Shown here piece after piece: positions 4,215 to 64,000 of a DNA stretch of 64,000 bases. The first letter of the stretch is position 1, and every line of letters begins with the position of its first letter. Position numbers and translations under genes: made by a program. Below the pieces are notes generated by a model. The model ran no database searches. It was given only the letters and a program-made list of their open reading frames with translations, and was not told the origin of the DNA. This stretch comes from Scenedesmus sp. PABB004 (taxonomy: Eukaryota), in the NCBI GenBank assembly GCA_014905635.1, contig JABVCE010000011.1, positions 558,001 to 622,000 on the forward strand. The letters are read 5' to 3'.

Positions 4215-4394
4215 CGGCGCTGGATGGATGAACGCGGGCCTCGCGTGCGCGCACGGCGCGCGCGCGCGGTGGCAGCTGGGATCCGTGGTCGGTTGCGGGC
4301 GGGCGCGCGTGGGGCTGGCTGTTGTTGGCGGCGCGCGGGCTGAGTGGCCGCGGCCGGCCGCAACAACTGAGGCCGCTTGGGGCTTGGGGACGAT

Positions 4395-34985: not shown

Positions 34986-37900
34986 TCACGGCGCGGGCGC
35001 GCAGGTGCCCTCCAAGGCCGACCAGACGCCGCCGGCCTCGCAGGAGGAGACCGGCGTGCCAACAAACCCGGGCTCGCAGTCGACGTTGCACACGCCGCCG
35101 ACGGACGTGACGCCGGTGCTGCAGCTGCCAATCCAGGTGCCGTTGGCAGGCGGCGGCGGCAGCTTGGAGCTGAGGCAGCCTGCGGCGGCGGCGGCGGCGG
35201 CGCAGTCAGGCGCGAGGGGCGGCGCCGGGCTGCGCGGCAGGCGGCCTGGCGGGCGCGGCGCGGCCGCGGCGTTGCGCCGCCCACCTGCGGTGCAGCCGCC
35301 GACAACCTCGCCCCAGATGCCGCCGGCCTCGCACAGCGCGGCAGGCTTGCCGAAGAATCCGGCGTTGCAGGTGGCGGTGCAGTTGGCGCCGACGGCGGTG
35401 CTCGCTCCGCACGCAAACGTGCCGTTGCCGACCTTCCCGGGGCTGCCAGGGCAGGCTGCGCGCGGAGGAGGAGGAGGAGAGGAGGCGGGGGCACAGCAGC
35501 ACAGCAGCAGGCACGTCAAGCGGTGCACGTGCCCGCGTGCGCTCAGCCCGCAGCCTGCGCGCGGCACGCATGCCGCGCCGCGCCGCGCCGCGCCGCGCCG
35601 CGCACGCACTTGAGACCGCCTTGACGCACTTGCCCACGAGCTGGCCCCACTTGCCGTCCGAGCCGCAGCGCGACCAGGGCCCGGTGGCGTTGTAGCTCAG
35701 GTCGTCGGTGCTGTCGAACACAAAGCCCGCCGCGCAGGCCGCCGAGCACTCGCCCGCGACGGGCGTGCTCGCGCCGCAGCTGAACGCGCCGTTCTCGGGG
35801 TTGGGGGGGCTGCCGGTGCACGCTGCGCGTGGGGGGGGGGGGGGAGGAGCGGCGGTTCAGCGGCAGGGCGCGGGCGCGCGGTGGGTGGGTGGTGGTGTGT
35901 GTGTGTGGGGGGGGGGGGGGCAGGGTTGGCGCGGCGGCTCGGCGCCCGCCCGCCCGCCTCACCAGTGGTGGACGAGACGCAGGTGCCCGTCACCGCGCCC
36001 CACTTGCTGTCCGCGCCGCACGTGGCCTTCGGCGAGCCAGAGAAGCCGGGCTTGCAGCTGGCCACGCACTCCAGGTTGGCCTGCGTGAAGGGGCCGCACT
36101 CAAAGTCGCCGTTGGCAGGCTTTGGCGGGTTGCCCGTGCAGCCTGCGCGCGAGGCGGCAGGCGGCCGTCAGGGCCGCGTGCAGCGTCAGCGCCGCGAGCG
36201 CCCCTCGCGTGCAGGCCGCGCGGCCCGGGGCCGCGAGCGCCAGCACTGGCGGGGCGCCTCCCGTGCGCGCGGGGCGGCGGCGCGCACACGCACCTGGCGG
36301 CAGCTTCACGCATTCGCCCGAGACGTCCGCAAACTTGTCCGGGCCGGTGCAGACGGTGAAGGGGACGCCGGTGTAGCCGTTGTCGCACTTGGCGGAGCAC
36401 ACGGTGCCGGTGCGGACGTCCTTGCAGGTGGTCTCCCAGCGCGAGTTGGGGGGCGCCGCCGGCAGCTCGCCGCTGACGCAGCCCTCGACGCACTCGCCCA
36501 CCACGCCGCTCCACTCGCCGGCGCGGCACTCAATCAGCGGCGTGCCCACCGGGTCGCCGAAGAACGACCTGCGCGGCGCGGCGGCGGCGCGGGCAGGGGT
36601 CAGGCGGGCCTGCCTGCCGGCGCGCTCCGCGCAGCGCGCCCGGCCGGGACGGCGGCGCCTGCTCACGGGTTGCAGGTGCCGTTGCAGTTGCTGCCGTGCG
36701 GGGTCGACGCGCCGCAGTTGAACACGCCATTCTTGAGGGCGGGCGGCGCATCCGTGCAGGCTGCGGCGGGCAGCTGCGGTGAGCGCGGGCTGCAGCGCGC
36801 CGCGCGCCGCGGACGCCGCTGCGGCCCGGGCATGCGGTCGCGCGCGCGCGCGCGCCGCCTCACGTGCGGTGGACAGACGGCAGGTGCCCTTCAGGCTGCT
36901 GGCCACCCACGCGCCGTCGGTGCCGCAGGTGATGGTGGGCCCGCCGACAAAGCCGAAGCCACACTCCGCCTTGCAGGTCCCGCCCGACGCCACGTTGTTG
37001 CACTGAGCCAGCGGCCAGGTGCTGTTGCCCGGCGCCTCCGGCAGCTCCTGGGCGTTGCAGCCTGCGTGCGTGGCGGCGGCGCACGCAGCGGCCGCTCAGC
37101 TTGGGGCGGCCGCGCGCGAGAGAGAGAGCGCGCGAGAGCAGTCATATGGCTGCTCAGGGGATGCATCCCCTGTCACGCTGCGCTCGCCGCACCGCGGACG
37201 CAGTTGCCCTTGACGGGGCCCCAGGTGCCGTCGGCCTGGCAGACAGAGGTGGGCGTGCCGACGGCGTTCTCGTTGCACGCGGCGGTGCAGTTTGCGCCGA
37301 TCGCCGAGCTCGCGGCGCACGAGAAGTTGCCGTTTGCCGGCTGGGGCGGGTTGCCGGCGCAGACTGCGAACGCGGCGTCCGGGCGGCGTCGGCGACGCGC
37401 GGCAGCGGCGTCTGCTGAGCATGCGCCGCGCACGCCTCGCGCGGCGCGGCGCGCCCACATGTGATTTCGCAGTTGCCCACCACCGGCGACCACGTGCCGC
37501 CGGTGCAGGCCGTGAAGAACTGTCCCGCGCCGTTGCCCGCGCAGTTGGCCGTGCAGGTGCCGCCGATGGGGGTGTAGCGGCAGGTGCTCGGCCATGAGTT
37601 GCCGGCGGGCGGGTCGGGGATCGCCCCAAACAGGCACACTGCGGCGGCGAAGGCGGTCGCAGGTGCGGCAGGCGCGGCGGCGGCGGCGGCGGCGGCGGCT
37701 TGGGCGGCGGCGGCGGGGCGGCCGCGGCGCCGGGGAGTCCTCCGCCCGCCGCGCCGGCGCTCACCCCACTGCGTCCACATCTCTTCGTTGAAGGGGCGCA
37801 CGCTGGGCGTGCCCTGGAAGGGCTTGACGCCGTAGCAGACGCCCCACGCGGCGCCCTCGGGCGTGGTGGTCGTCTGCACCCCCGCCTCCACGCCCTTGGT

Positions 37901-38704: not shown

Positions 38705-38873
38705 GGCCGCGGAGGGGCCGGCCGCGAGGCGCGTGCAGCCGGCGGGCGCTGTCTGCGGGCGCTGTCTGCCGCACTGTGTTTGTTCGGCGACGCGCCGGAG
38801 CACCGGCCGGCTGCGGGTGTGTTGGGGCCGGCGCGTGAGCGGCGCGAGCGGCGCGAGCGGCGGAGCGCAGGAA

Positions 38874-39040
38874 GGTGACTTCCGCGGGTGAGTCAGCCCC
38901 TCGCGCAGCACAGCCCGCCAATGGCGGACCTTACGAGCTGAACGGCTTGTACATTGGCGTAGCTAGCTCAGTCGCGGCCCGGCAGGCGGATCCGAGCGCT
39001 GTGCGGCGATTTCGGGCTGACTCACCCGCGGGAAGCCACC
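38874..39040. promoter_or_regulatory. Dyad-symmetric element in a ~500-bp bidirectional promoter
   Basis: 18-bp perfect inverted repeat ccgcgggtgagtcagccc (38882-38899) / gggctgactcacccgcgg (39014-39031), extendable to ~26 bp, with TGA(G/C)TCA in each arm; inner inverted pair cgccaatg (38916-38923) / cattggcg (38952-38959). Confidence 0.6.
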
Positions 39041-39205
39041 GCGCATGACGCCGACCGCGGCCCGCCCCGCCGGCCAGAACGGCGTCTACGACGCCGCTCC
39101 CGGGAACTTCCGGCACCCCGCGCCGCCCCCCCCCCCGACGCGCACCGCCGCCCGCCCATGCTCGCGGCCTGAGCCCGGGCACCGCAGGACAGTACGCAGG
39201 CGACG

Positions 39206-42200
39206 ATGGAGCCGCTCAGGGCTCTGTCGTTGCTGGCGGCGCTGCTGCTGGTCGGCAGCGCCAGCGCGCAGAGCGTGGCCGAGGGTGCGTGGCGAGCATC
39301 AGCCGGCGCGCCGGGGGCCCGCCGGCCGGGCGGCCCGGGCGGCTGCGGGGCGTGATCAGGGGCGTTCATGCCACCCCGCGCCCCGCAGCCGGCCTGGGCG
39401 CCGGGCAGGGCCACAGCAGCGCGCCGCCGGTGACCGCGGCGACGCTTCGCCGTTCTCTGTGGCGGGCGGCCTGCGCCGCCTGCCCCGCGCCCGGCTGACC
39501 CCGCTGCCGCGCCCGCGCGCCCGCAGTCACCGCCGCGAGCCTGCCGCGCACGACCGCCGCGCCGCGCGCGACGGCGACGCCCGCCAACACCACCAGCAAG
39601 GAGAGCTGCTTCGGCTTCCTGGAGGCGTTCGTGCCCGCGGGCGACGCCGGGCGGGTAGTTAACGTGGAGGGCACCTTTGCGGGCCTGCCCGTCGCCTTCA
39701 CGCTTACCTACGACGAGCCCAACGGCGTCACCTGCAGCATCGACGCGTGGGCGATGGAGGCGACCAACGTAAACGTGCAGGGCGCGGTCAAGAGCATGTG
39801 GGCCGACCCGCCCGCGTGGCTCAGCTCCGCGCTGGAGACGGTCTCCTTCCCCCGCCTCGCCTCGCGCCGCGTCCCGGGTGCGGCGCCGCGCGGCGACGCG
39901 CGCCGGCGCCGCGCCACGCGGGCGCCGCGCCGGCGCAGCCAGCCCGCGCCGGTGCCGCGCCGACGCCGCCTGCCCGCGCACCCCGCCCGCCCGCCCGGCC
40001 GCGGCCGCGCAGCGACGTCGCCCGGCGTGCTGTTCATTGAGGCCGACACCGTCATCGCGGGGCGCCCGGTCAACTTCCGCGCCGCGCTGACCGACCCGCT
40101 GGGCCTGCGCCTGCTCGCGGTGCAGCTCGCGCAGACCCTCGACCTGCAGACCGTGCTCGCCGACGCAGGGTTCACCAGCCCCGTCGACCTGAACGACATG
40201 TTCGTCCTCCAAAACCCTGGGCTCACGTACGTCCGCAACGGCGCCTTCACCGACTCTGACGGCACGCAGCGCTCGCCCGGCCTCTACCTCAGCATGGGCC
40301 TCGCGATGCCCAAGTTCGGTCTGCCCATGACCAACGTCTCCTTCCCGGTGCGCCTGCCGTCGTCCATCTCCATCCCCACGCCCGGCATCCCCGAGGTCAC
40401 GGTGCCGGTGCCAGAGATCAACGTCAAGGTGCGCCGCGCACGCCGCCCCCGCGCCGCCCCGCGCCGCACTGCGCCGCGATATGAGCCCGTGCTTGAGCGG
40501 CCTTAACCCTAAACCCATAACCTAAGCCGTCCTCCCGCCCCTGCGCTCCCGCTCCCGGTCCTGCCCTAAAACCCCAAACCCTGCCAACCCACCTGCCAGT
40601 GGACGAGCAAGATCGACGCGGCCAAGTACCTCGAGATCAACGAGCTCGACGTCACGGTCAAGCGCCTCGGCGACGACAAGTTCCTGGTGGGTGCCTGGGC
40701 GCTGCGGCCGCGCGCGCGTTGGCAGCGCGTTGGCAGCGCAGCGGGGCAGCCGCGGCGCGGCCGGCGCAGCGGGGAAGCCAGCCAGCCGCGGCGCGCACCC
40801 GCCGCCGCGGCGCGCGCCCGCTGACCCGCGCGCTGCGCCGCTCGCCGTGCTTCGCAGAGCGCGGCGGGCAAGGCCAAGGTCGCCGGCGTGCCGGTGGAGA
40901 CGGTCTTCCGCCTGCAGAGCGGCAACTACTCGTTTAGCGCGCGCGCCGGGGTGAGGGAGGGACCCAGCCGCCAGCGGCGCGGCAGGGCAGGGCCGCCGCG
41001 GCAGGGCTTAGCGCGGCCGTGGCTGGCGCGCCGCGGGCGCGCGGCGCCCGCTCAACTCACTGACTCCCCCGCGCGCCGCGCCCGCGCCCGCGCCCGCGCG
41101 CGCAGCCGACGCCGGCCGCGCCGATCGTGGAGCGGCTGTGGCCGGTGGCCGGCGGCCCGCCCGCGACCTTCACCAACGCGCTGAGCGACGTCACGCTCGA
41201 CATCCGCTACGACAAAGGTGCGCCCCGCGCCCCGCGCCCCGCGCCCCGCGCCCCGCGCCCCCTCCGCTGCTGAGATGGCCTGGGCTGCGCCGGCGCCCCC
41301 GCCCGCCGCGCCGCCGCGCCGCCGTGCCGCCGCGCGCCGCCCGCTGGCCTGAAACCTTAACCCCCCGCCTCACCGCCGCTGCCCAGGCCTGCTCTACCTC
41401 GCGGCCAACTCAACCGAGGGCAGCAAGTTCCGTGCCATCACCAACCAGGAGAGCAGCCTGCGCCTGCTCGAGGCCAACCTCGCCTCGACCGGCACGCTCG
41501 GCCAGATCATCAACGGCCTCGGCGTCTCCAGCTTCCCCGAGACGAGCGCCGAGGTCGTGAGCTTCACCAACCCCGCGTTCCAATACATCTTCGGCGGCCA
41601 GGGTGCGCGCCGCCGCCGCGATCTGCTGCCGCTCCTCCCTGCCGCCGCCGGCCGCCCCTGGCTGCCGCCGCGCGCGCGCCTCGCTGCCGCCGCGCCCCGC
41701 CCACATGCGCCTGCCGCGCCCACTCAAACGCAGAGTTCACGTGGGAGGGCGTCGCGTACAAGCCAGGCCTGTTCTTCAACGTCGAGCTCACCGTCCCCTC
41801 GCTCAACGTGACCAAGGCGCCGTTCACGATGACCGTCGATCGCAACGGCTCCACCACCACGAGCGCCAAGCTCGAGGTGCGGCACGCGGCCCCGCGCGCG
41901 GCCCCCGCGCACCGCGCAGCCGGGCGCGCGGCGCCGTGCCGCGCTGCGCGGCCGGGCGCCGCCGCCGACGCGAGCGCCCCGCCGTCCCCGCCGCCCCCGC
42001 CGTCGCCGCGCCGCGCAGTGGGCCGGCACCGCCACCGTCGCGGAGGGCGTCACCGTGTCCAACATCAGCCTCAGCGCCGCGCGCGGCGTCGGCTTGGTGC
42101 GCCGCCCGCCCCCCGCCCCACGCCCGCCCGCCCCGCGCGCGCCCGCCAGCCCCACGCGCCGCTGCCGGCGCTTCGCGCACCGGCCCCGCGCGCGCGCGCG

Positions 42201-45200
42201 CCCACGCGGCCCCCGGCCTGTCCGGCCCGCCCCGCGCGCGCGCAGGCCGCGACGGGCAAGGCCTCCGTGTATGACGTGCCCGTGGAGGCGTCGATCCTGC
42301 TGTACAACCGCTCCACCTACACCTTCAACGCCGTCTCCGCGGTGAGCGGCCCGCGACCAGGCCGCGCTGGCCGCGCACGCCGCGCCCCCGCCCCGCCGGC
42401 GCCACGCGCCGTGTTCTTGCGGCAGCGCCCGGCTTACACCGCCGCGCCCTGCTCACGCCGCACACTGTTCAGCCCTACCCGGCCGGTGAGATCGTGAAGA
42501 AGATCTGGCCCGGCAGCACGCCGCCGCCGATCGTGACAAACTCCATCGGCGACATCTCGCTCAACATCACCTTCAACAGCGGTGCGGCCGGCGCCCGCGC
42601 CGCGGCGCGCAGAACCCGGCCTGCGCTCGCTGCCGCCGGGCGGGCGCCGGCCGCGCGCGCGCGCGCGCCCCGCGCCGCCCGCCCCGACGCCCGGCGCCGC
42701 CTGCCCGCCGCCGGTGCACGCAGGCCAACTCTCGATCGTCGGCCTCGGCAGCGCGGGGTCGAGCTTCCGCGTCATCACCAGCGAGAACACGCGGCCGCGG
42801 CTGCTGCAGGCCAACCTCGTCGGCACGGGCAACCTGGGGCAGGTCATCAACGGCCTGGGCATCGACTTCCCGGCGGCCAGCGCCGACGTCGTCACGTTTG
42901 CCAACCCCGCGTTCTACTACACCTTTGGCGGCCAGGGTGCGTGGCGCGGCGGGGCGCTGAGGGCTCAGGCTTGAGGGTTGATGAGGGCTCAGGGGTCAGG
43001 GTTCAGGGGTCTGGGTCGAGACGCCGCGCCGCGCGCGCCCCGACGTGCAAGCCCCGACCCTGGCCGCTCACTCGCGCCGCGCCGCCCTCCCGTGTGCTCC
43101 CCTGCCTGTCCCCGCCCGCCTCCCCCGCGACTGCTCAGAGTTCACCTGGAACGAGGTCGTCTACAAGCCGGGCCTCGTGTTCAGCGTCAACCTAACCGTC
43201 CCGGCGCTCAACATCGCCGACGCGCCGTTCACCATGACCGTCAACCGCAACGGCTCCACCACCACCAGCGCCGTGCTCGAGGTGCGGCGGCGCGCTGCGC
43301 CGCCACCCCCGCCGCGCGGCGGGCGGCGGCCCCTGTGAAGCAAGCCCCGGCTGCACGCGCGCGCCCGCCGCGCCCACGTCCGCCGCCGACTGACACCCCG
43401 CCGCGCCGCGCCGCACCGTTCCGCGCGCGCGCAGTGGACGGGCAAGTCGGTCGTCGTGCCCGACGTCGTGGAGATCACCACTGCCGGCTTCCAGGCCGCG
43501 CGCGGCGGCGGCCTGGTGCGCCCGCGCGCCCGCGCCCGGGCCCGCGCCCGGGCCCGCGCGGCCCACCACCTGCCCGCCCGCGCACGCCCACGCTGCGCCC
43601 GCCCCGCCACAGACCGCCATCGCCAAGGCCACCGTGTACGACATCCCCGTCGAGGCGTCGTTCAACTTCCACAACCGCAGCGTCATCTTCACCGCCGCCT
43701 CGGCGGTGCGCGGCCGCGCGCGCGCGCGCCGCGCGCGCGCGCGCGCCGCCGCCGCCGGGCCTCTTGACTTGACACCCCCCAACCCTTAAACCGCACGCCG
43801 CCGCCGCCGCCGCCGCCGCCGCACTGCTCAGCCCTACCCCGCGGCGTCAATTGTGAAGAAGATCTGGCCCACCGCCACGCCGCCGCCGATCGTGACGAGC
43901 GCGGTCGGCAACGTGTCGTTCAACATCAACTACACCCGCGGTGCGCAAGGGGCTGACAGGGCAGCGGCGCGCGGCGCGGGAGGGCAGCAGCCAGCGGGGC
44001 GCGCCGCGGCGGCACCGACGGCGGCGCGCGCGCGCACACACGCTGACGCGCCCCGCCGACTGACGCGCCCCGCCGGCTGCGTCGCGCCCGCACAGGCCAC
44101 CTCTCGATCGCCGCGGCCGGCAGCGCGGGGTCGGGCTTCCGCGTCGTCACGAACGAGGCGACGCGGCCGCGCCTGTTCCAGGTCAACCTGGTGACGAGCC
44201 AGAGCCTGGCCGATATCCTGCAGGGCCTCGGCGCCTCGTTCTCCGTCCCCACAGACATGCTCACGTTCAGTGACCCCTCCCTGCAGTACGTCTTTGGCGG
44301 CCAGGGTGCGTGCGCGTGAACACTGCGCGCCGCGCCCCGCATGCCGCTCGCCGCGCGCCGCGTCGCGCCGGCGGCGGCGGCTGTGGTGCGGGGCCCCCGC
44401 TCGCTCGCTCACGCGCCCGCCCACGCGCGCCGCGCAGCGTTCACGTACGAGGGCGTGTCGTACCCGCCCGGCGCGGAGCTCAAGGTGCTGCTGACCATTC
44501 CCTCCATCGACGTCACGCGCGCGCCGTTCACCATACTCATTTCCTCGAGCGAGAGCCAGGCGATCGGCAACGTCACCCTCGACGTGAGGGTCTCTCACCG
44601 CTGGCGGCGCGGCGGCGCGCGCCGCGGCGCCGTGCTGGCTCACACAGAACTGGGGCAAGCCGCGCCGCGCCGCGCCGCCGCCTGCTCCTCCGCGCGCGCC
44701 CACGGCCCCGCCCCGGCCCGCGCCGCGCCGCTGCGCCGGCACACTGCGCAGTTCTCCGGCAGCATCGTCGTCGCGCGCTACCTGAACATCTCACGCATGA
44801 GCCTCGTCGGCGCGCGCGGCGTCGGCCTCGTCGCGAGCAGCAGCGGCACGATCGCCGGCACGCCCGTCAGCGTGGCGCTCACGCTCGCGACGCAGGCCGC
44901 GCAGGCCGCGGGCGCGGCCGCGGTCTCGGTCACGGCCACCGCCAGGGTGCGGCGCGCGCGCCGCCGGCCGCCCGCCCGCCCGCCCGCCCTGCACCCCCGC
45001 GCCCCACATGGCGGGCCCAGCAAGCCCCAGCCCTCACCCCTGCGCCCTCACCCCTGCGCCCTCACCCCTCCGCCCTGGCCCCCGCGCCTTTTGCCCCTCC
45101 GCCGCCCCCGCCCCTGCGCGCAGGACGTCAACATCGGCACCATCGTCTCCACCGTCTTCCCCGCGACGCCCGAGGTCGTGCGCGGGCTGCTCGGCCGCGT

Positions 45201-48200
45201 GCGCTTCGACGAGCTCGTGCTCAACTTCAACTCCAAGCAGCTCCGCTTCTCCATTGGTGGCGTGCCCAACCTCGGCGGCGTCCCCGAGCTGCGCAAGGTG
45301 CTGGAGTTCCTGCAGCTCGGCGCCGACGCAATCAAGCTCAAAACCCTCGAGAGCGGCGGCCTCGACCTGGCCATCGAGAAGATGTGGACCTTCAACCCCG
45401 GCCGCCCCTTCACGGGCCCCGCGACCGCGGGCTTCTCCCTCGGCGTCTCCTCCGACGCGACCGGCTTCACGACCACGCTCGCCGGCAAGTTTGCGGGCCA
45501 GCTGCGCGTGGACATCTTCGAGAACCCGCTGGTCAACGTCGCCTGCGAGGTGCGCCACGCGAGCGGCCGCCGGGCTCACGCGTGCTGTTCACGGGCCGCC
45601 GGGGCCGCTCCGCGCGTCCGCCGACCCCGCCCCCGCCCACGCGCGCACCCCCTCCCCTCCCCCTCTGCCCGCCCGCAGGCGGGCGTGTCGTTCGCGCCCG
45701 CCACGACGACGTTCCGCCTCGGCGTGAGCTTTGTCGGCGACATGCAGATCAAGGGCTTCCCCTTCCTCAAGCTCCGCGTGCTCAACGGCAGCATCGGCGT
45801 CAACCCGAGCCCCCTCTCCGTCACGTCCGCGTCGCTCCGCGTCGACGGCAAGCTCGTCAACACCAACATCGCGACCACGCTCGTGTACGAGGCCGCCAAG
45901 GGCGTGTTTGGGTTCCGCGTCACCGTTGACAACTTCAGCCTGCAGGACACGCTCGCCGCGCTCGGCATCAACGTCAACCTCGGCATCAGCAACATCCAGA
46001 TCTCAAACGCCGTCGTCGCGTACGCGACGACCGACATCAGCGCCGAGCTCAAGCAGGGCCTGCGCGTCGCGGGGCAGTTCCAGCTGTTCGGCATCCGCGG
46101 GTCTGTCAACTTTGGCATGGACCGGGACGGCATGGACCTCGCCGGCAGCCTCAACTTCGCCGAGGCGCGGCGCGCCGGCACAGCGCGCCGCGCGGGCCGC
46201 GGGCCGCGGGCCGCGCCGCGCGCTCGCCCATGGGCGCCGCACCCTGCCCGCGCCCCTGAGGGCCGCTGGGCTCATAAAACCTCGCCGCCCCGCCGCCCCG
46301 CGCCGCCTCCCTCCTCCGCAGAAAATGATCGACACGTACAACAAGATCGACAGCGCCCTCAAGGCGTGAGTACCTAGCAGCGCCGCGCGCCCGCCGCCAC
46401 CGCGCCGCCGCCGCTGGCTCCGGCCACACCTCCCGCGCCCTGTGGTCACGCACCACGCCTGCTGACGCGTCCGCTCCTGCCGCCGCCCGCACCACGCGCT
46501 GCTTCATCTCCCCCGCGCGCAGCGTCGGCATCAACCTCGGCGCGATCGGCATCCGCCTGCAGGACATCTTCCTGGTCGAGACGTTCAGCATCGACCTCGT
46601 CCTGCGCAGCGCGACGGTGCGGCGCCGGCGCACCTCACCACGCCCCCCCGGGGCCCCTGGCCCGGCCGCCAGGCTCAACCTGGGCGGGCCTCTGACCCCG
46701 CGCGCCGCGCGCCGCGGTCCGGGGACTCACCGCGCCGCCGCGGCCGCCGCACGCCGCGCCGCACGCTCGCCGCCGCGCAGAAGCGCTTTGCGGCGAGCAT
46801 CTCGTTCGTGGTGCTCAAGAATAAGCTGAGCTTTGGCTTCTCCATCGACGCGGGCAACGTCAACTTCTTCGCCGACGCGATCGCGGCCGAGGCAAAGCGC
46901 TTCTTCACCGGTTAGCTTGCGCTCGCTGATGCCGCCGCCATGTTGTGTGCCGCGCCACGCCGCCGCTGCCGCCGCCGCCGCCACACCGCCACCACCACAC
47001 CGCCGCACCCTCACGCGCGCCGCGCCGCCGCGCCGCCGGATCGCAGCCGCGTGCACGCGCGACTCGTACGACCGCGGCGTCGGCCGCATCCCCACGGGCT
47101 GCCCCGACGGCCAGGAGAACTTCAGCGGGCTCTGCTACCCCAAGTGCACCCAGAACTGGCAGTACGGCGTGTACGGCAAGGACAACCGCTGCTACCAGGT
47201 GCGAGCGCGCGCGCTGCGCGACTGGTCCCCCAAACCCTGAACGGCAAGGGGGGTCGGCGGGAGCGCTGCGGGGTCTGGGGGTGCGATGCGCCGCGCTGAC
47301 GCGCCGTCACGTGCCCGCAGAACTGCCCGCCGGGGTGGAACGACGATGACCCGGTCGGCAAGCGCGGTGAGCCGCGCGGCGCGCGTGGGGCAAGGGTTGA
47401 GGGTTTGGGCTCGGTCCCTAAACCTGCCAGCCGCCGGTCACCGCCGCCGCCCGCCGCCGCCCGCGCCACGCGCCGCAGGCCTGAGCTGCTCCATCCTGCA
47501 GTGCGACCCCGGGTGGACGCTCAAGGGCCTGCTCTGCTACAAGAACTGCGACCCCGGGTGGTCCAGCGACGGCCTGGCGGTCTGCTACGAAAACGTGCGT
47601 GGCGCGGCGGCGGCGCCCAGCGCCTGGCGCCCGCGGCGCCTGCGGCGGCGGCCGCCGCGCCCCCGGCGCGCGCGCCCGCCCCTGAGCGCCCGCGCCCGCC
47701 CTGAGCGCCCGCCCCGCCCGCCCGCCCGCCCGCCCGCCCGCCCGGCTGGGACCCCCGCAGTGCCCCGCCGGCTGGGACTACGTGCTGCTCAACTGCCAGC
47801 GCTGGGCGTGCAACGCCGACGAGGACGTGAGCGCCAGCGCGCTCGCCCGGCTCGCGCCACGAGTGGCCCTGTGCGCGCGCCGCCCCTGACCCGCGCGCGG
47901 CCCCGTGTTGCGCGCGCGCGCCCGCCCCGCAGGACAACGGCTGGGGCTTGTGCTACCCCAAGTGCCGCGCCGGCTTCCGCAGCGACGGCGCCAACCTCTG
48001 CCTCGGCGGCTGCGCGCCCGACTACTCGACGCTGCCCCTCACGTGCTTCCGCCACCACAGCGTGAGCGCCCGCGCCGCCGCCGCCGCCAACAGCGCCGGT
48101 GTCCGGCGCGCGCGCGGCCGCCCACCCGCGTGCGCGGCCGCCCACCCGCCCCGCCCCGCCCTGCCCCGCCCCTCGTCCATCCGCGCGCGCAGCTCTACTG

Positions 48201-48277
48201 GAAGGGCTGCTGCTGCTTCTGCTTCTTCGGCTGCCGCTGCTGCGGCAACTGCGCGGGCGGCTACAGCGACCGCGGTG

Positions 48278-48312
<35 letters not shown>

Positions 48313-50042
48313 GCGCCGCGTCCACGCCGCGACCCCCGCTGCGCGCGCAACGCTCGCGCCCCCTGAACCCTGCACACCCGCTGCGCCGCGCCGCGCCAGG
48401 CTGCCTGTGCGACCGCTGGGCGTCGTCGTACTGGCGCGACATGTACTGGCGCAACAGCCGCACCAAGCTCACCAGCTACACGCGCCGCTCCTACTGGACC
48501 CGCTCCACCGGCGGCGTCAAGAGCTTCTGGAAGAACATCCAGGGTGAGCGCGACGCGCACAGCGCGCACAGCTTGCGCACAGCTTGCGCACAGCTTGCGC
48601 ACAGCGCGCGCAGCGGCCCCGCCCGCCGTGGCCGGGCCCCTGCCCCCCCGCCGCCAACCCCTGCCCTGCGGCCCGCTCCACCAGACCGCGGCGTCGGCCG
48701 CATCCCCTCACGCTGCTCCGACCCCGAGTTCCCCAGCTACGAGGCCGGCCTCTGCTACCGCAAGTGAGCGCCCATGCCTGCCGCCGCGCCGCTCTGCTGC
48801 GCCCCGCCGCGCCGCTCTGCTGCGCCCCGCCGCGCCGCTCTGCTGCGCCCCCGCGCCGCCCCATCGCCCGCCGCCCGCCGACTGCTCTCCGCCGACTGCT
48901 CACACCTGCCTCTGCTCTCGCCCGCCGCCCGCCGCGCTCCGCAGCTGCGCGCCCGGGTACGACAGCTTTGCGACGATGTGCATCAAGAAGTGTCCCGCCG
49001 GCTACACCAACTGCGGGACGTACTGCGTCCCGACCGGCCTGCCGCTCGGCTGCGCCGGCTTTGCGGGCGCGCTGTATCAGCGCTGCAGCGCCAAGCGCGC
49101 CGGCGGCGTCAGCGTGGCGTCGGTCGACGACACCATCGCGCTCAACAACACCGGCTCACCCGTGCCCTACACCGCCAACCGCGAGATGGCGATCGCGCAG
49201 CCGCTCGAGGCCGCGCTGCGCAAGAGCGGCCGCGCCGCCGCGGGCGGGTCGCGCACCAAGCCGGGGTGCAGCACCTCGCTCGAGTGCTTCTGCCGCGGCG
49301 TCAAGTCGGGGTCGCGCTTCGCCAACCCGTTCGCTCCCAGCGACAAGCCGGGCTACATCGTGTGCGGCAACGGCCGCGCGGTCACCGCCGAGTGCGAGGA
49401 TGGCACCAAGTTCGACGCCGCCGTCGGCGCGTGCCTCAGCCCCGAGGCCAGCCGCGCCGCCGCCGCCGCGGCGGCGGGGCCCAAGGCCGTCGCCGCCGCG
49501 GGCGCGGCCGCCGCCGACGCAGCGACCGACCTGTGCGCGGACCTCGAGGACGGCGCGTACGCACGCAAGAACGCGACCGGCGGCTACGTGGTGCGTTGGG
49601 GGGAGGGGCGCGGGGCGCGGGGCGCAGCCGCGCGCGCGGCACGGCCGCGGGGCGGGCGCCTGGCGGATGCTTGGGGGCGGCGCGTGCCGCGTGGGCAGGC
49701 CGCGGCACCCCTGGCGGCTGACGCGCCCGCCCGCCCGCACCCGCGCCGCAGCGCTACGACTGCGAGGGCGGCAAGATGCTGCCCGAGTGCCCCGCGGGCC
49801 AGCAGCGCGGCGAGCCGGGCAGCGACTGCGAGGCGACGACCAACGCCGTGCCCCAGAGCGCGCGCGCCGCGGCCGCGGCCGTCGTGCCCGCGGCCGACGC
49901 GGCGGCTGCGTCCGAGGCCAAGTGCAAGGACGTCAGCTGCTTCTGCAACGTGCGGCACGGGGCCTGGCCGCCGCGGCCTGCCTGCCGGCACGCCAGCGCG
50001 CCGCGCGCGCACGCGCCGCGCTCGCTCCAGCCCACTCACAAC

Positions 50043-50082
<40 letters not shown>

Positions 50083-50809
50083 GCCGCATGCGCAGCGCAA
50101 GCAGGATGGGCTGTACGTCGACTCGATCGCCGCCAACTACCAGCGCGTCAACCCCGGCGGCGGGCGGCGCCCGCGCGCGGCGGCCGGCAACGCGACGTCC
50201 CCGGCGGCCAACGCGACCGCCGACACCGCGCCGGTCAACCCCGACATCGCCGCGGCGGCGCGGCCCTTTGCGAGCTACATCCGCTGCGCGGGCGGCGCCG
50301 GGACCCGCGAGTTCTGCCCCGGCGCGCAGGAGTTTGACGTCGCGCGCGGCCGCTGCGTGCGCGTGCCGGCGGGCAGCGGCAAGTCCAAGGCGCTCGCCGA
50401 CCCGGCCTGCAAGAGCCTGGACTGCGCGTGCACGGACCGCGCCAACGGCGTGTACGTGAGCCCGGTCAACCCCGACCATGGCGTCATCTGCGACGGCCAG
50501 CTCGCGTACGACCTCGCCTGCCCCGACCAGGCCGTGTTTGTGGAGGCCAAGGGCATGTGCGTCGCGCGCGGGACCAACGGCACCGCGACCGGCGACGGCC
50601 CAACCGGCGGGCGGCGGTCCGGCGGCCAGATCCCCGCGTGGGCGCGCGACGGGCCGACCGGGGACCCCGCGGGCACGCCGGGCCCGGGGCCCGTCGGCGG
50701 GCTGCCGGAGGAGTGGGCCGCGGCGGGCGCTGCGCCCGGGGTCGCGGCGGCCGGCTTTGCGGCCGCCGGCGGCCCCGCGCCGGCGGCCGGCGCCGGCGGC
50801 GAGCCGTGA
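39206..50809 (+). CDS. Very large secreted multidomain protein: beta-rich ~210-aa repeats, Cys-rich module and four peritrophin-A/CBM14-like domains
   Basis: Signal 'MEPLRALSLLAALLLVGSASAQ'; more than 30 exons. Three 5-exon repeats (40600-41876, 42019-43281, 43435-44583); Cys-rich block ~47047-49090; C-terminal units such as 'CFCRGVKSGSRFANP...GYIVCGNGRAVTAECEDGTKFDAAVGAC'. TGTAA at 51042-51046. Confidence 0.75.
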
Positions 50810-51421: not shown

Positions 51422-54883
<3,462 letters not shown>

Positions 54884-55294
54884 GCCGGCGGGTCCCGGGC
54901 TGCCGTCTCTCTGCCTTTGGGAGTTTTGCGTTTCCTTGGCTGTACGGCCTGCGCTGGGCTCGCACTGCCTGCGAGCGAGGCGGGGACAGCAACAGCAACA
55001 GCCGCTCGCGCCCTTTGCGTGACGGACAAGAGCTGCGGCCTTTGGCCCGGCTGCCGCGGTCGCCTGCAGGCCCGCCGCCACGCAACTGGCGCGGGCCACC
55101 GGCGGCCGCGGCCGCCGCTGTATCGTGTGTAGGCGGGCGCCGCTGGATTGTGCAGCGGGCGCCACGCGTGTGTACAGTGTGTGCGGGCTGCTCTCGATTT
55201 CTCACGGATGCTTGCGGTCGCGCGCCGCTGACGACATAAACGGGCCGGGCACATCAGGTTCCCCCGTGGCGATATCGCCGCCCGGCGTGCCCCG

Positions 55295-58093
55295 AGGCCG
55301 GTGCAGTGTTGCAAATCTGCGGCGGCTGCTGCGGCCCCAGTGCGTGGCGAGCTGCCGTGCCGACCGCGGCCAGGCAAGCGCGTGCACAGAGCGAGGCCAG
55401 CGCGCCCCCCGTGCTGCGCGCCAGCCGCCAGCGACCGCCGCCAGGCTACAGCTCCAGCTCAGGGCTACACAGAACGGCATCGGCCGGCAGCCTGGCAGGC
55501 CCGCTGCCCACCCCGCCGCGCGGCTTGAGCCCCTGCGCTGCCGCCGCCGCGCCGCGCGACGCAGCCGCCCGCGCGCGCCGCGCACCCCCCAGTCCCCGCG
55601 TGCCCCGGCAGCGCGCCGACGCCCTGCAGTGCGCCAGGAAGCGCCATGGCGGCCAGCTCGCCCGCCCGGCGCGGCGCGGCGCCGCCGCCCGACGACGGCG
55701 CGAGCCCGCTGCTGCGCGCGCTCGCGGCGCTGGACGACGGCGTGTGGGCGGAGGCGCTGCTGCCCAAGCTCCGGGCGGACACCGGCAGCGCGCCCGCGTT
55801 CGCGCTGGCCTGCAGGGAGGCGCGGCGGCTCGTGCAGAGCAGCGCGGCGGCGCTGTCGCTGCGCGCCGCCGACTGCGCGCACGCGGCCCCGCTGGCGCGC
55901 CTGGGGCAGCGTTTCACCGGCTGCAGCGAGGTGGCCTTCGTCCTGGCCAGTCCCGGCGACGCCGGCGCGCCGCTAGCGACGCTGCTGCCCGCGCTCGCGA
56001 GGCGAGCGGCGGCGGGCGGCGCGCGGTCGGCCGGGGCGTGTCGGTGTCTTGGGGGTGACGCGCGTGCGTGCGGCAAGCAGCTGTCCAGGGGAATCCATAC
56101 GGAGGGCGGCTCACCCTCCGCGCCGCCACACCTGCCCGCATCTGCACCTGCAGGCTGCCGCGGCTCACGTCGCTGCGCCTGGACGCGGCAGCCAGCGCCG
56201 CCGCCAGCGAGCCGGCAGCCATTGCACCGGCGATTGCGGCAATGGCAGCACAGCTGCCAGGCCTGCGGTCGCTGGAGCTGGCGCCCAGCAGCAGCTGGGA
56301 GGGCAGCGACGCCGCGTGGCGCGTGCTCGGCCTGGCGACGCAGCTCACGCGCGTCGCGGTGCGCTTTGATTGGCAGCTGCGCTCACCCGTCACACTGCAC
56401 CACCTGTCGGCGCTGACCGCCATTAGTGGCCTGGCGAGCCTCGTTGTTGGAGGGGGCTATCTGCACGGCCCGCAGCACTACGGCTCCCTGGCCGGCCTCC
56501 TGGCGCTGACAGAGCTCGAGCTGCCCCTCGTGTGGGACTGTCAGGGCCTGGACGCCATTGCTGCCTGCACCGGCCTGCGGAGCCTCGTGCTTCCGGCACA
56601 GCATAGCATTGATGATAGCGGCACCCTTGTCCGGGCGGCGCTGGGCGAGGCGGAGTGCGCGGCGATCGCGCGGTGCACGCGGCTCACCAACCTGAACATG
56701 CTGGTGGAGCAAGGCTCCGACCCGCACCTCCTGGCGGCGCTGGCGGCGCTGACGGGCCTGCAGGACCTCACCATCGAACAGCTGTCGCGCGCGTCGCTGC
56801 GGTCCCTGGCGAGCTTGAGCCAGCTCACTCGGCTGGAGAGCAGAGGGTGGAGGGCGCCGGCGGAGGGGCCGGCGGCAGCGCAGCCTGCCCGTCAGTGGTG
56901 GAGCTGTGCGGCAAGGGCCCGGTGCTGTTTGAGGCTTTCCCCATCCTGCGCGACGTAGTGCAACACAGCACGTGGCCGGCCGCCACGCTGCATCAGCTGA
57001 GCATGCACTGCTGCGGGCTGACGGCGCTTCATATGGTTTTGTGCGAGCACTGGGCAGAGCCCAGCTTTGAGGCAGGCGTTGGCACCCAGGCGGAGCGCGT
57101 GGCGGCGCTGCGCGGCCTGGCCGGCCTCAAGGGGCTGCGCGCGTTGGGTCTGTCAGCCAGCGACGACGCGGAGGTGGCGGCGCTGGGCGCGGCGACGCAG
57201 GTCACCTGCCTGGTCCTGCGCGTGCCGGAGGGGAGCGCGTGCACGGCTGCCGGGCTGATGGCCCTTGCGCGCATGACCTGGCTGCGCGATGTCTGGCTGG
57301 AGCTGTTGGGGCTCGAGCTGAGCGGGGAGGAAGCCGGGGCGTGGCTGCGCGCGCTGCGCTTTGCGGACGACGTACTCGTGTCGGTGACGGACGAGGGCCA
57401 GCGCGCGGTGTGGGCGGGCGCGGCGGCCGCGGCAGCGGCGCACGCGCCTGACGCGGCGCCGGCCGACTGGTTTGAGGTGGAGGTGGTGCGGCCGGTGCAG
57501 GAGCCCGCACCGCCGGCCGCCGGCGTCTGGTCGGGGAGCGAGGACGAGTGGGAGGAGTGAGATGGCTCTGCGCTGGGCAGTACTAGCGTCTGGCTCTTTG
57601 CGCGAGCTGCGTGTGGATCGAGCGGGGGCGGTCGGCGGCGGTGAGGTTGAGGCTGTGCGGTGCCAGAGTGCGTGCATGATGTGCTCCGCATGCGCGTGCG
57701 GCCGCCGTGCCGCGCGCGGGGGGCCTGGCGCGCGCCCCCAGGCCGGTGCCGCAGTGTTGCAAAGCTGTGGCTGCTCCGGCCCCAGTGCGTGGCGAGCTGC
57801 AGCGCCGACCGCGGCCAGGCAAGCGCGTGCACATCTGTGAGCGAGGCCAGCGCGCGTGCAGTGCTGCGCGCCAGCCGCCAGCGACCGCCGCCAGGCTACA
57901 GCTCCAGCTCAGGGCCCCACAGAGCGACATCGGCAGGCAGCCTGGCAGGCCCCCCACCCGCCGCGGCTCAAGGTTGCACCCCTGGGCCGCCGCCGGTGCG
58001 CCGCGCGGCCGCCCACGAGCGCCGCGCACAGCCCACTCCGCGCCCCGCGCCCCGGCAGCGCTCCGACGCCCTGCAGCGGCCCAGGAGGCGCCA
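55295..58093 (+). repeat. ~350-bp imperfect direct repeat (55295-55646 and 57740-58093) flanking the LRR-like gene
   Basis: Shared blocks such as ccagtgcgtggcgagctgc, gccgaccgcggccaggcaagcgcgtgcaca and gtgctgcgcgccagccgccagcgaccgccgccaggctacagctccagctcaggg; copy 1 is the region immediately upstream of ATG 55646. Confidence 0.9.
55646..57560 (+). CDS. LRR/RNI-like protein with degenerate F-box-like N-terminus
   Basis: Exon 55646-56001, GC-AG intron, exon 56154-57560; 'FALACREARRLV', LTSLRL, LRSLEL, LTELEL, LRSLVL, LTNLNM, LQDLTI, LTRLES. One -1 frameshift near the G run at 56865-56868. Confidence 0.65.
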
Positions 58094-58442
58094 GAGCGAG
58101 TAGCAGCGGCCCTCCTGCAGGTACACGACGTACGGCCAGTCCTGCGAGCAATACGAGTAGCACCTGCGGGCGGTCGGCACGGTGCGCGGCAGTCTCGGCA
58201 CTCGCGCGGCGGGCCGACCTTCCACGCCGCCGCCGGCGCGGGCGCCGCCGCGCCGCCGCCGCCTGCGCGGGCGCGCTGTGGACTCACAGGCCGCTCTGCA
58301 GCAGCTGGCCCTGCGGGCAGGCCGTGGGGATGGCGCCTAGGCCGCGGTCGACTGTCTCCTTTGCGCACGCGCCCTGCGCTGCGGCGCCGCGGAACTGCCC
58401 GGAAGCCGCCACCAGCAGCACCACCAGCACCGTCGCCCGCAT
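58092..58442 (-). pseudogene. Truncated tandem copy (exons 1-2 only) of the small Cys-rich secreted protein gene
   Basis: Near-identical to 60621-60971; homology ends at the exon2/intron2 boundary, where it joins the LRR upstream repeat. Confidence 0.75.
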
Positions 58443-59065
58443 CCCGCGGTCTGGAGCGGCCGGCGCGCGCTGCGCGGGCGAGCGCCGTCGGCGAGCTGCA
58501 GCGAACGGGGCGCTGGGCGCGTCCTGGCGGGCGCGGATGCTACGTGGCGTCAACCGGTTGCCGACTGCGTTGCGCGCACGGGGGACTAACGCCACCGAGT
58601 GCGACGGCGGGCGTGCGGGTCGCCGTGATGACATGGCGAGTAAAACCCACCGCCGCGGCGCCGCTGGGCCGCCGCCGCCGCCGCCCCGCGCGCGCAATCG
58701 GCAGACTGACCGGCCGCGAGTCTGTTGAGTGAGCTGAACGCGCCAGCCGCGTCTGTGTCGCCGCTGGCGCGCACCCGCAACCGACCCGCGCACCCCCCAG
58801 CGCCGCGCGGCGCGCCATAGCACGCGCCAGCGTGAACCTCGGACCGCCGCACGCCCGTCGCGGCCGCCTGCAGCGACCGCGGGCCGGCTCGCCGGAAGGC
58901 CGCCGGAGGCGCAGCCGCGCAGTCTGCGGCCTCCCGCGGCCTGCCGCGCACGCAGCCGCCCACATGCTGGCCGGCGCTACCGGTGCGCCTGGCGCTCGTG
59001 CCCGGCTCCTGCTGCTGCTGCTGCTCCTGCTGCTGCTTCTGCTCCTGCTGCCACAGGCGTGCGAG

Positions 59066-60971: not shown

Positions 60972-61492
60972 CCCGCGGTCTGGAGCGGCCGGCGCGCGCT
61001 GCGCGGGCGAGCGCCGTCGGCGAGCTGCAGCGAACGGGGCGCTGGGCGCGTCCTGGCGGGCGCGGATGCTACGTGGCGTCAACCGGTTGCCGACTGCGTT
61101 GCGCGCACGGGGGACTAACGCCACCGAGTGCGACGGCGGGCGTGCGGGTCGCCGTGATGACATGGCGAGCAAAACCCACCGCCGCGGCGCCGCTGGGCCG
61201 CCGCCGCCGCCGCCCGCGCGCGCAATCGGCAGACTGACCGGCCGCGAGTCTGTTGAGTGAGCTGAACGCGCCAGCCGCGTCTGTGTCGCCGCTGGCGCGC
61301 ACCCGCAACCGACCCGCGCACCCCCCCAGCGCCGCGCGGCGCGCCATAGCACGCGCCAGCGTGAACCTCGGACCGCCGCACGCCCGTCGCGGCCGCCTGC
61401 AGCGACCGCGGGCCGGCTCGCCGGAAGGCCGCCGGAGGGGCAGCCGCAGCGCGCGCCGAGCGCCGCCTGCCGCGCACGCAGCCGCCCGAGTG

Positions 61493-64000
61493 ATGGCGCG
61501 GGGAGGCGCCCTGGTGCTCGTGGTGCTCCTGGCCCTGGCCGCTGGCGCTGCAGGTGGCTGGCCGCGCGGCGGGGCAGCAGCGGCCTTCCTCGGTGCCGCC
61601 GGCGCGGTGCCGCCGCGCTGCGGCGGCGCGCCACCGCTCCTTCGCCGCCGCCCTGACCCGCTCTCCCGCCCCGACTCGCGCGCAGGCCAAAATGCGACGC
61701 GCTGCGGCCTGAACGCGCGCTTGAAGGACGGGCGCTGCCTGTGCGTCCGGCCCTTCACGCGCGTGCCGCGCACGGGCGACTGCTGCCTGGCAAACCAGTA
61801 CGTCGCGGGCAGCGGCGCGCAGCGGCGCTGTGCCTGCCGGCGCGGCTACGTCTTCTCGGCTGCCACGCAGAAGTGCCGCGCGGGTGCGCGCCGACGCCGC
61901 CGCCGCGCCGCGCAGCCGCGCCCGCCGCCGCAGCGCGGCCGCCCCCTCGCGCGCGATGGTGACCCCCCGCCGCCGCGCCGCGCCTCGCGCCGCAGCCGCC
62001 GCCTCGGCGAGCGCGCCGGAGGTCTTTGCCCTGCCCGCCGCGGTGCACGCGGACGCGGCGGCGGCGGCGGCGGCGTGCCGCAACGCCAGCGGCGGCGCGG
62101 CGCTCGCGACGCTCGCGCAGCTGACCGCCGCGCGCGCGGCGGGCGCGGACTGGTGCGACTGGGGCTACGTGATGGCGACGTCGGACGGCGCCGACGGCGG
62201 CGCGCCGCTCGCCGCATTCCCCGGCGGCAAGTGCGCGACCGACCGGGGCGAGGCCGCCGGCGTGCAGACGCGCGCCGCGCCCGACGCGCTCGTCGGCGCG
62301 GTGTGCTTTGGCATCAAGCCCTTTGAGGGCACCGCCGGCGTGGCGCCGTTCAGCGCCGCCGCGTGGACGCAGTGGGGTGCGCGCGGCGCGGGACGGCGGG
62401 CGCGGCAGGCAGCCCGCCGCGCGCGCGCCGCCGGGCCCCGCGCACGCCCGTCGCCCCCTCCCTCACGCCGGCGCCCGCCCGCCGCGCCGCGCCGCAGTGT
62501 GCATGTACGCCGGCCTGCCGCCCGCGCCCGGCGGCAGCGCGTGGCCCACCACGTGCAGCTACACAGCCGTCGGCGGCGTCTGCGCCGGCGTGTGCGGGGG
62601 GCGGGGCGCGGGGCTGTTCTACTCAATGTGTATCGGCGGCAGCTGGGCGCCGCCCGTGGGCGACTGCAAGGTCACATGTGAGCTAGCAGCGCGCACGCGG
62701 GCCGGGCGGGGCGCGGTATCGGCGCGGCGCGCGTGCGACGCGCGGGTCGCGGCGCCCGCCCGCCGCGCGGCGCCCGCCCCCGCGCACGCCGACGCCCGCC
62801 CGCACGACCGCCCGCCCAGACTGCCCTGGCAACCCGCCGAACCCGCCGAGCGGCAAGTTTGAGTGCGCCGCGAGCGCCAGCGTGGGCACGACCTGCAACG
62901 CCACCTGCAGCGACGGCGGCGCGGCGTCGGCGGCGTGCCAGGCGGACGGCACCTGGGGCCCCATCATGGGCGCCTGCAAGATCGGTGAGCATCCCCCCCT
63001 GGCGCGCAGCGCAGCCGGGCGGGGCAGGCCTGCGGGCGCGCCACGCTCACGCGCGGCGCGAACCCGCCCCGCCGCCGCCGCGCAGCCTGCTTCGCGCGGG
63101 ACCTGCCCGCGGCGCCGGCCAACGGCGTGTGGCTCGCGGCCGACTGCGCCGAGGTCGCGCCGGGTGGCAGCTGCAAGGCGCAGTGCGCCCCCGGCACGGA
63201 GGGGGCGCCCACCATCTCCTGCGGCGCGGACGGCACGTGGCAGGCCAGCAGCGGCGCCTGCACGCCCTCCACCGTGGCCTGCACCGGCTCGCCGCCTGCC
63301 CTCACCAACGGCGTGTTCAACTGCGGCGCGTCGACCCCGCACGGCAGCAACTGCACGGCCGCCTGCAACCCGTGAGCAGGCGCCGCCGCCCGGCCGGGCT
63401 GTGCGCGTCCAGGCCAGCCCGCCCGACCCCTGCCCGCGTCGCCGCGCCGCGCAGGTCATTCTTCGGCGAGCCGGCGGGCGCCCCGCTCGCCGTGTGCCGC
63501 AACGGCAAGTGGGATGCAGTCGTGGGCCAGTGCCTCGCAGGTGCGCTGCCGCGCGGAGGTGGCTGGCCGCGCACGCCCAGCAGGCCGGCGGCGCGAGGCG
63601 CCCGCGCGCCGCGCTCGCGCGCCGACCGCCCGCTGTCCGCCACGCCGCGCAGGCTGCTCCGGCGCGCAGCTGCCCGCCGCGCCGGCCAACGCGCAGTGGG
63701 AGGCCTGCCCCAATGCAGGCACGGGCGGGGTCTGCCGTGCCAAGTGTGCCGCCGACTACGCCGGCGCGCCCGCCGCCGTGTGCACGGGGCCGGGCACGGG
63801 CTGGGCGGTCGCCGGCACGTGCGTCGCCGCGCCCTTGTCCTGCTCTGGCAGCCCGCCCGACCCGGCCAACGGCGCGTTTGACTGCGGCCCCTTCACCGTG
63901 CGCAACGCCGCCTGCAACGCGACGTGCCGCCCCGGCTTTGCCGGCGCGCCGACGGCCACGTGCGGCGCCGACGGCAAGTGGGGCGCGGTGACGGGGGTCT
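61493..64000 (+). CDS. Second secreted EGF-like/Link/sushi-repeat protein (paralog of 34986-38704); runs off window end
   Basis: Signal 'MARGGALVLVVLLALAAGAA'; 'CGLNA...DCC...CACRRGYVFSAATQKC'. Link exon 61996-62376 'ACRNASGGAALATLAQLTAARAAGADWCDWGY...VCFGIKPF'; six CCP-like repeats collinear with the paralog. Confidence 0.8.

Follow-up and report, generated by a model that had tools for sequence, protein, structure and literature searches.

We analysed a 64,000-nucleotide (nt) window of the Scenedesmus sp. PABB004 genome (contig JABVCE010000011.1, here contig C4, positions 558001-622000). The genome is of 40 Mb, rich in introns and of 69-82% GC. The window carries two head-to-head gene pairs, in each of which a gene for a protein with a Link module and sushi-like repeats (L1, L2) diverges from a gene for a protein with a cysteine (Cys)-rich module (G1, C2), and a third such pair (L3, G3) lies on contig C14, where the spacer between the genes is an inverted repeat. 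All six genes were reconstructed as spliced models, exon by exon, from the sequence itself. The four start codons and the two divergent spacers given in an earlier note on this DNA were reproduced by the rebuilt models (Table 1). Introns followed the GT-AG rule in all six models except for one GC-AG intron of G1 (46165-46321), which is required for the frame that agrees with G3, and the GC content at third codon positions was 0.93-0.97 throughout.

The public proteins P0001, P0003 and P0160 are identical, letter for letter, to our L1, L3 and G3 models, and those for L3 and G3 have consecutive accession numbers. P0002 matches the first 758 amino acids (aa) of L2 exactly. At 1306 aa, P0002 (C4:619493-625600) joins L2 to a downstream gene of leucine-rich repeat (LRR) type; because L2 ends at a stop codon of its own, 13 codons beyond aa 758, this fusion is probably an annotation error. 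Each protein begins with a hydrophobic stretch, as judged by a hydropathy scan rather than by a signal-peptide predictor. The same scan found no further 19-residue window above 1.5 in L1, G1 and C2, and two alanine-rich windows at 1.5-1.7 in L2 that are unlike transmembrane helices, in agreement with the earlier claim that all four products carry a leader and that the three complete ones lack a transmembrane segment.

Table 1. Positions of the paired genes and associated features in the window
Feature	Position	Strand	Description
L1	38704..34986	-	12 exons, 770 aa; leader, EGF-like Cys domain, Link module, nine 6-Cys sushi-like repeats
Link-module exon of L1	37765..38133	-	Pfam Xlink, E 3.6e-8, 34 bits (cut-off 27)
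Pair-1 spacer	38705..39205		501 nt; putative bidirectional promoter
Pair-1 inverted repeat	38882-38899 / 39014-39031		perfect, 18 nt; TGACTCA in each arm
G1	39206..50809	+	35 exons, 2173 aa; leader, beta-repeat region, Cys module, four CBM14-like units
Beta region of G1	39527..46910	+	aa ~53-1384; Cys-poor, amphipathic; internal repeats, strand alternation
Cys module of G1	47047..49100	+	aa 1385-1705; 34 Cys invariant in G1, G3 and C2
Four CBM14-like Cys clusters of G1	49250..50570 (limits approximate)	+	Pfam CBM_14, Cys positions
Partial duplicate of C2 exons 1-2 and pair-2 spacer	58092..58960		96.5% identity over 911 nt to 60621-61522
C2	60971..59066	-	8 exons, 358 aa; leader fused directly to Cys module
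Pair-2 spacer	60972..61492		521 nt; no significant mirror, no TGASTCA
L2	61493..64000, continuing to C4:622871 (871 nt past the window end)	+	10 exons, 771 aa; architecture of L1

Head-to-head pairs across the genome

Exon searches of the genome scored only the best candidates, so that the locus counts given here are lower bounds. Searches with the Link exon and with the N-terminal Cys exon led to three loci each, of which Pfam Xlink recovers two, and the Cys-module exons matched only G1, G3, C2 and the partial C2 copy (6 matches among 8 candidates, and 6 among 6). On C14, L3 (279554, minus strand, 792 aa) faces G3 (281237, plus strand, 1652 aa), with 1682 nt between the two ATGs. All three Link/sushi genes and all three Cys-module genes that we found are paired head to head, and no solo Link gene or full solo Cys-module gene was found in this genome. 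The earlier note had named unlinked homologs elsewhere in the genome as one mark of a passive duplication; what we found was a third linked pair and no solo copy. Its view that the paralogs are well diverged and still keep their pairing was likewise borne out, with 41-61% identity between paralogs, the third pair on C14 and unrelated flanks. We found no match in 20 of 21 comparisons of flanking coding segments, the sole match being an LRR paralog shared by the flanks of pair 1 and pair 2, and no protein similarity between L and G. A tblastx comparison of the window with C14 was swamped by GC noise. Two introns are common to G1 and C2 and absent from G3, and one is common to G1 and G3 and absent from C2. 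Because of these shared introns, and because L1 and L2 are the closest L pair, the data fit, without proving, a derivation of pair 2 from pair 1 followed by domain loss.

Moreover, the beta region of G1, which is also present in G3, was identified as a domain in four more genes (six in total), and a renewed search found no further locus. Two of these lie on contig C1 (ATG 569067, plus strand; ATG 595228, minus strand) and carry a leader, a sushi array, a TSP1-like domain, the beta domain and a coiled coil. They face partners (ATG 568709, minus strand; ATG 595587, plus strand) of a secreted type, which have a Cys domain like that of ephrin receptors and some 11 sushi units, across spacers of 357 and 358 nt; the starts were chosen by a leader heuristic and the models are partial. 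The arrangement repeats that of the window, one pair being an inverted copy of the other at a distance of 26 kb. Altogether, 4 of the 6 beta-domain genes, and C2 as well, lie head to head with a secreted sushi gene. Common ancestry of the L genes and the C1 partners is unsupported, because sushi-unit scores (medians 18-27 bits) do not separate these partners from other sushi genes. Neither this sister type nor the beta domain as the main domain of the giant protein had been noticed in the earlier note.

Between C1:563629-569416 and 594878-600753, the arms are 94-99% identical in the 5′ coding parts of the sushi partners, 65% identical in the shared spacer and 66-79% identical farther out, which amounts to a conversion gradient that leaves out the promoter. 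The two unpaired beta-domain genes, at C10:782.8-793.9 kb (plus strand) and C23:282.5-287.05 kb (minus strand), also have TSP1-like and coiled-coil parts. The gene on C10 lies at most 2 kb from the contig end and has a small repeat of its 3′ part (792688-792882 versus 795081-795272). Their upstream neighbours are presumably a same-strand chaperonin subunit gene and a divergent protein kinase gene, respectively. Other genes with sushi-like repeats were seen at C35:1121940, C67:41925, position 750851 of the contig labelled C2, and C27:86-88 kb; the C35 and C67 matches score identically and may be duplicates.

Domain composition of the paired proteins

The L proteins consist of a leader, a Cys domain with weak EGF-type matches, one Link module and nine sushi-like repeats, and are 44-54% identical to one another (L1/L2 54%, L1/L3 45%). 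Against the Xlink cut-off (PF00193), L1 and L2 (29.5 bits) scored above and L3 (22.8 bits) below, and the four Cys of the Link module are invariant. Pfam Sushi (PF00084) matched with 54 and 69 bits against a cut-off of 20.7. The canonical sushi/CCP repeat has four Cys, whereas those of the L proteins have six each (54 Cys in nine repeats), indicating a sushi-like variant. L1 and L3 are publicly labelled Svep1, a best-hit name. In SVEP1, sushi arrays occur together with VWA, EGF and pentraxin domains; this identity was rejected for the L proteins, since only Sushi and Xlink were found in P0001 and P0003, with no VWA or pentraxin domain.

To place the L architecture we used 159 proteins, namely the top 150 of 385 representative matches and 9 cluster members. 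The Link profile was present in 39, the sushi profile in 119 and both in 3; these three are this genome's own paralogs, and no L-type architecture was found beyond this genome among the top 150 matches. The closest outside Link domains belong to unnamed environmental proteins, with up to 71 bits per domain versus 23 bits per domain for aggrecan, which matched the algal module with an E value of 1.3e-9. Two of the three best outside matches, the unnamed environmental proteins P0089 and P0131, join RCC1 repeats to a Link domain; the longest contig is 17652 nt for both, and they may be neighbours. Relatives of the Link domain were found on viral contigs in 2 of 142 stretches, and one of them, on an IMG/VR contig, has neighbour genes that we take to be giant-virus-like. 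A viral origin of the algal Link module is therefore possible on these similarities. A single-Link protein was observed at L041 3887-4342 on a 102-kb viral contig, next to genes that are presumably Rab-like, RING-like and ubiquitin-conjugating-like. Pattern scans, able to detect close relatives only, yielded no relative: 0 of 360 in metagenomes and 0 of 92 in genomes for A3, 0 of 599 in metagenomes for A2, 0 of 43 in viral contigs for A1 and 0 of 35 in genomes for A8.

G1 had been described as a giant Cys-module gene. The Cys module is present, but it spans only 320 aa of the 2173-aa protein, most of which is a Cys-poor beta region of ~1,330 aa with 3 Cys. The identity of the module is 61% between G1 and G3 and 41% between G1 and C2, and it is related to a repeat in P0161 (E values of 2e-19 to 2e-30 for G1 and G3). 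The proposed long and short versions of the Cys partner were both recovered, C2 being an intact short form; because it retains a leader and the whole Cys module, with the 34 Cys invariant across three copies, C2 looks maintained, not decayed, at the sequence level.

We found that CBM_14 (PF01607, cut-off 22.1 bits) matched G1 exons (E values of 2.3e-6 and 1.4e-9; 28 and 38.4 bits) and the last exon of G3 (32.7 bits), whole G3 scoring 21 bits, below the cut-off; the second CBM14-like unit of G1 had no Pfam match. In CBM14 domains, an aromatic residue just after the last Cys takes part in chitin binding. The residues following the last Cys of the units are LSP, EAT, VRV and VAR in G1, and VQS, TTP, VVM and YSE in G3. 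Another CBM_14 match was observed outside the paired genes (C77:1282390-1282554). N-glycosylation sequons number 24 in G1 and 11 in G3. A sequence search of the PDB gave nothing for G3 and nothing useful for the last G1 exon, and a predicted complex of L3 27-350 with G3 945-1272, folded without alignments, scored 0.00 and is uninformative either way.

The beta region of G1 contains repeats of about 213 aa starting at aa 283, 500, 713 and 926, and its alternation of hydrophobic and polar residues exceeds that of 300 of 300 shuffles. It matched no named family, and Pfam DUF6603 did not match. The nearest named Atlas cluster was nevertheless DUF6603, at 0.83 and 0.78 (below the 0.9 mark) and with the family on 24% of its members; unnamed bacterial clusters were nearer, at 0.95 and 0.89. 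A model of the equivalent G3 region (682 aa) showed long beta meanders and short helices at modest confidence (predicted local distance difference test score (pLDDT) 57, predicted template modelling score 0.32), its input alignment being partly mis-aligned; a single-exon fold had a pLDDT of 34. Fold searches with this low-confidence model gave no clear match. The best rows were generic, with porins at a root-mean-square deviation (rmsd) of ~16 and lipovitellin at Z 6.5 and rmsd 3.8 over 119 aligned residues, and a Tupanvirus Chorein-N domain appeared at an E value of 0.011. DUF6603 and the repeating-beta-groove lipid carriers may be a weak lead. We found no paper on DUF6603. A beta-exon search found none among 2404 candidates and missed G3 itself, which marks it as a weak search.

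Spacers, mirrored motifs and neighbouring genes

The L3-G3 spacer is an inverted repeat with arms at L005:2468-3235 and 3577-4326 and a 341-nt centre. The arms align over 701 nt (660 upstream and 41 coding) with 1 substitution and one 21-nt indel, and the signal peptides of L3 and G3 have 13 codons in common before they diverge. The region is not a dispersed repeat. For a strain comparison we used two runs (2 of 2) from freshwater metagenomes of one study, at low depth, which contain the only other visible lineage, a ~97%-identical relative. Each run lists one long arm contig, with 12 differences over 502 nt and 11 over 477 nt from this genome, against 1 substitution in 701 nt between the arms, at depths of 6.0 and 5.3 versus 2.0-5.2 among the remaining listed pieces. 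Between the two runs, six listed variants occur as mirror images of one another; as the reference arms do not differ at these positions, this shows one strain type, not two arms. Variant 3622 G>C was found on X1 record 3, whose anchor is the right junction and which includes just 4 nt of the left arm, and also on an X2 contig (depth 2.3) that we read as a left-junction contig from its joint (3229/3590, side 49) and its end distances. This variant thinly supports a real palindrome with concerted arms.

In pair 1, TGACTCA, which we take to be a bZIP-type motif, occurs in mirrored orientation at -191 and -188 from the respective ATGs. The inverted repeat that contains it was reached by 0 of 1000 shuffles, and the global mirror score was z 3.6; this could be what is left of a palindrome, or else two binding sites arranged symmetrically. 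Four of the six TGASTCA sites in 102 kb fall, mirrored, in the spacers of pairs 1 and 3. The longest inverted repeat of the pair-2 spacer is 14 nt, a length that 33 of 1000 shuffles also attained. None of the 8- or 9-mers with at least three A/T was common to three spacer groups. In the literature, with most subscription journals outside coverage, we found no title on a mirrored promoter shared by non-homologous genes and none matching algal sushi/chitin defence.

The partial copy of C2 and the pair-2 spacer (58092-58960, corresponding to 60621-61488) joins LRR-family upstream DNA (57730-58093, 83% identical to 55285-55646), and no Link gene follows it. Its Link-facing side points into the 3′ end of C2 and could yield antisense RNA. 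Directly after G1, at 51500-54900 (plus strand), lies a gene with a DSP/PTP phosphatase domain (Pfam), presumably PTEN-like. LRR-type paralogs, 79-84% identical, bracket pair 2 at 55646-57560 (plus strand) and L008 ~4725-6500, and more LRR-like genes lie near 25-28 kb of the window. A 368-aa intronless open reading frame (33082-34188, minus strand), coiled-coil-like in an N-terminal stretch and unmatched in Pfam, adjoins the 3′ end of L1.

A proposed paired secreted module and its alternatives

We lean, by a little more than even, towards a co-regulated secreted two-gene module whose lead role would be to recognise a glycan that is inducible or foreign. A single short control region, acting in both directions, would drive L and the Cys-module gene jointly, probably inducibly, and the pair would have been duplicated and then kept as one unit. 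In the C14 pair, the control region, the start codon and the first 13 signal-peptide codons would exist as two mirror copies, most likely held alike through arm-to-arm gene conversion, so that two unrelated proteins would get the same promoter and 5′ leader. The L protein may form a stalk of nine sushi-like repeats with the Link module as a glycan-binding head at its tip, and the G protein a multivalent binder of N-acetylglucosamine (GlcNAc) polymers, with a CBM14-like tail on a long amphipathic beta-sheet body; C2 would be a minimal form with the Cys module only. We infer that the partners are co-expressed, secreted and cooperate on a common ligand; together they would coat or cross-link an extracellular glycan surface, most likely an inducible one such as that of a chitin-bearing parasite. 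The earlier note's proposal of a pairing beyond passive local duplication is supported by the C14 pair, the lack of any solo copy among the loci found, the unshared flanks, the intact short Cys partner and the mirrored promoter, while the glycan action it proposed is suggested by membership in the Xlink and CBM_14 families.

Among known systems, the pairs would work like the silkmoth chorion A/B genes, which are secreted, arranged in tight divergent pairs with a common promoter and multiplied as pairs, with gene conversion reported (PMC4639761, as far as the accessible part describes). The likeness lies in the head-to-head order, the short spacers (501 and 521 nt; 1682 nt between the C14 ATGs; 357 and 358 nt) and a pair duplicated and retained as a unit; the proteins and the kingdom are unrelated, and co-expression, demonstrated for chorion, is predicted here. 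Chorion promoters are described as alike between pairs (PMC4639761), whereas C14 has two mirror copies of promoter and leader within one pair. By this comparison the mirrored promoter appears to be new, and the module falls in no named family. Head-to-head cooperating partners retained as pairs are also known from collagen IV genes of the COL4A1/A2 type and from plant paired nucleotide-binding leucine-rich repeat receptors; those partners are homologous to each other, unlike L and G. The Link module shares its four invariant Cys with aggrecan, TSG-6 and CD44 and, in L1 and L2, an above-threshold Pfam match, but unnamed environmental domains score far higher against it than aggrecan does. The accessible part of a 2025 survey of PF00193 covers animals, bacteria, viruses and archaea and no alga, and its Table S1 could list one (PMC12383584). 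The L repeats share the Pfam Sushi match with SVEP1/CCP proteins, and G1 and G3 share Pfam matches with CBM14/peritrophin-A but differ in an altered Cys pattern and in the fusion to the beta region and Cys module. The module that we favour would be lineage-restricted.

A constitutive structural pair, that is, wall, mucilage or colony-adhesive blocks co-secreted at a fixed ratio as chorion A/B are for the eggshell, seems rather unlikely to us. The long repeat proteins, their many Cys and their sequons suit such a role, and identical promoters would fit a fixed ratio, for which chorion offers a precedent (PMC4639761); but an architecture confined to this genome among the top 150 matches is odd for core wall parts, and the terms sushi, Svep1, chitin and link domain are absent from the main text of a wall proteome paper on another species, Scenedesmus obliquus (PMC11839794). 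That two unrelated secreted genes became adjacent once and were copied jointly, the C14 repeat being a neutral recent inverted duplication that replaced the promoter and first exon of one gene, we judge improbable. Segments are frequently duplicated or converted here (the C2 copy at 58092, the C1 5′ regions, the LRR paralogs), L and G lack similarity, and unpaired beta-domain genes exist; against this, both partners are intact in 3 of 3 pairs at ~45% identity, solo genes were not found, the flanks were not co-duplicated, the C1 sister type repeats the layout with other domains, and a strain-specific variant seems common to both arms. It is very improbable that the palindrome is an assembly artefact and that only ordinary divergent pairs exist: near-perfect arms are typical of mis-joined repeats and no listed contig covers the whole palindrome, but the arms differ and fade into two distinct signal peptides, each in frame and with a splice donor of its own, and independent contigs run across the junction of arm and G3 (X2 record 12), that of spacer and right arm (X1 record 3) and, on our reading of the contig tables, that of spacer and left arm.

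A number of observations weigh against the co-regulated glycan-recognition module that we favour. The three pairs go back to a single ancestral pair, not to independent events, and rearrangement can hardly part genes that lie 0.5 kb from each other. Two of the six beta-domain genes (C10, C23) have no upstream sushi partner, both C1 spacers lack a palindrome or mirror and TGASTCA, and the pair-2 spacer lacks a mirror (z -0.7) and TGASTCA. The pair-1 mirror is short: exact inverted repeats of at least 18 nt were found in 6 of 404 genomic windows, the others apart from C14 being G/C-only, and its score was exceeded by one shuffle when exon 1 was included. The evidence for conversion consists of single low-depth contigs from one study, and a depth of 7.7 for the spacer contig weakens the depth argument. 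In the CBM14-like units, the second residue beyond the last Cys, a position that matters in chitin binding, is not aromatic, and C2 has no CBM14-like unit at all, so that the chitin step is weakened.

A bolder version, which we hold to be quite unlikely, is an algal extracellular immune module in which a giant-virus-type Link head would be induced together with a chitin-binding partner whose body resembles a lipid groove, the expression of both being locked by a self-correcting palindrome. GlcNAc polymers on parasites or virus-infected cells would be recognised, agglutinated or attacked; gene conversion would keep the promoter and leader of the non-homologous genes identical, and the same head-to-head scaffold would have been refilled with other domain sets on C1. 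Chloroviruses are described as producing hyaluronan and chitin (PMC5408694).

Taken together, the analysis adds five concrete gene pairs, a green-algal Link module and an unnamed six-copy beta domain to the little that is known of extracellular proteins for defence and adhesion in green algae. The C14 pair suggests a simple way in which two unrelated genes may be tied to one input, namely a mirrored promoter copy together with gene conversion.

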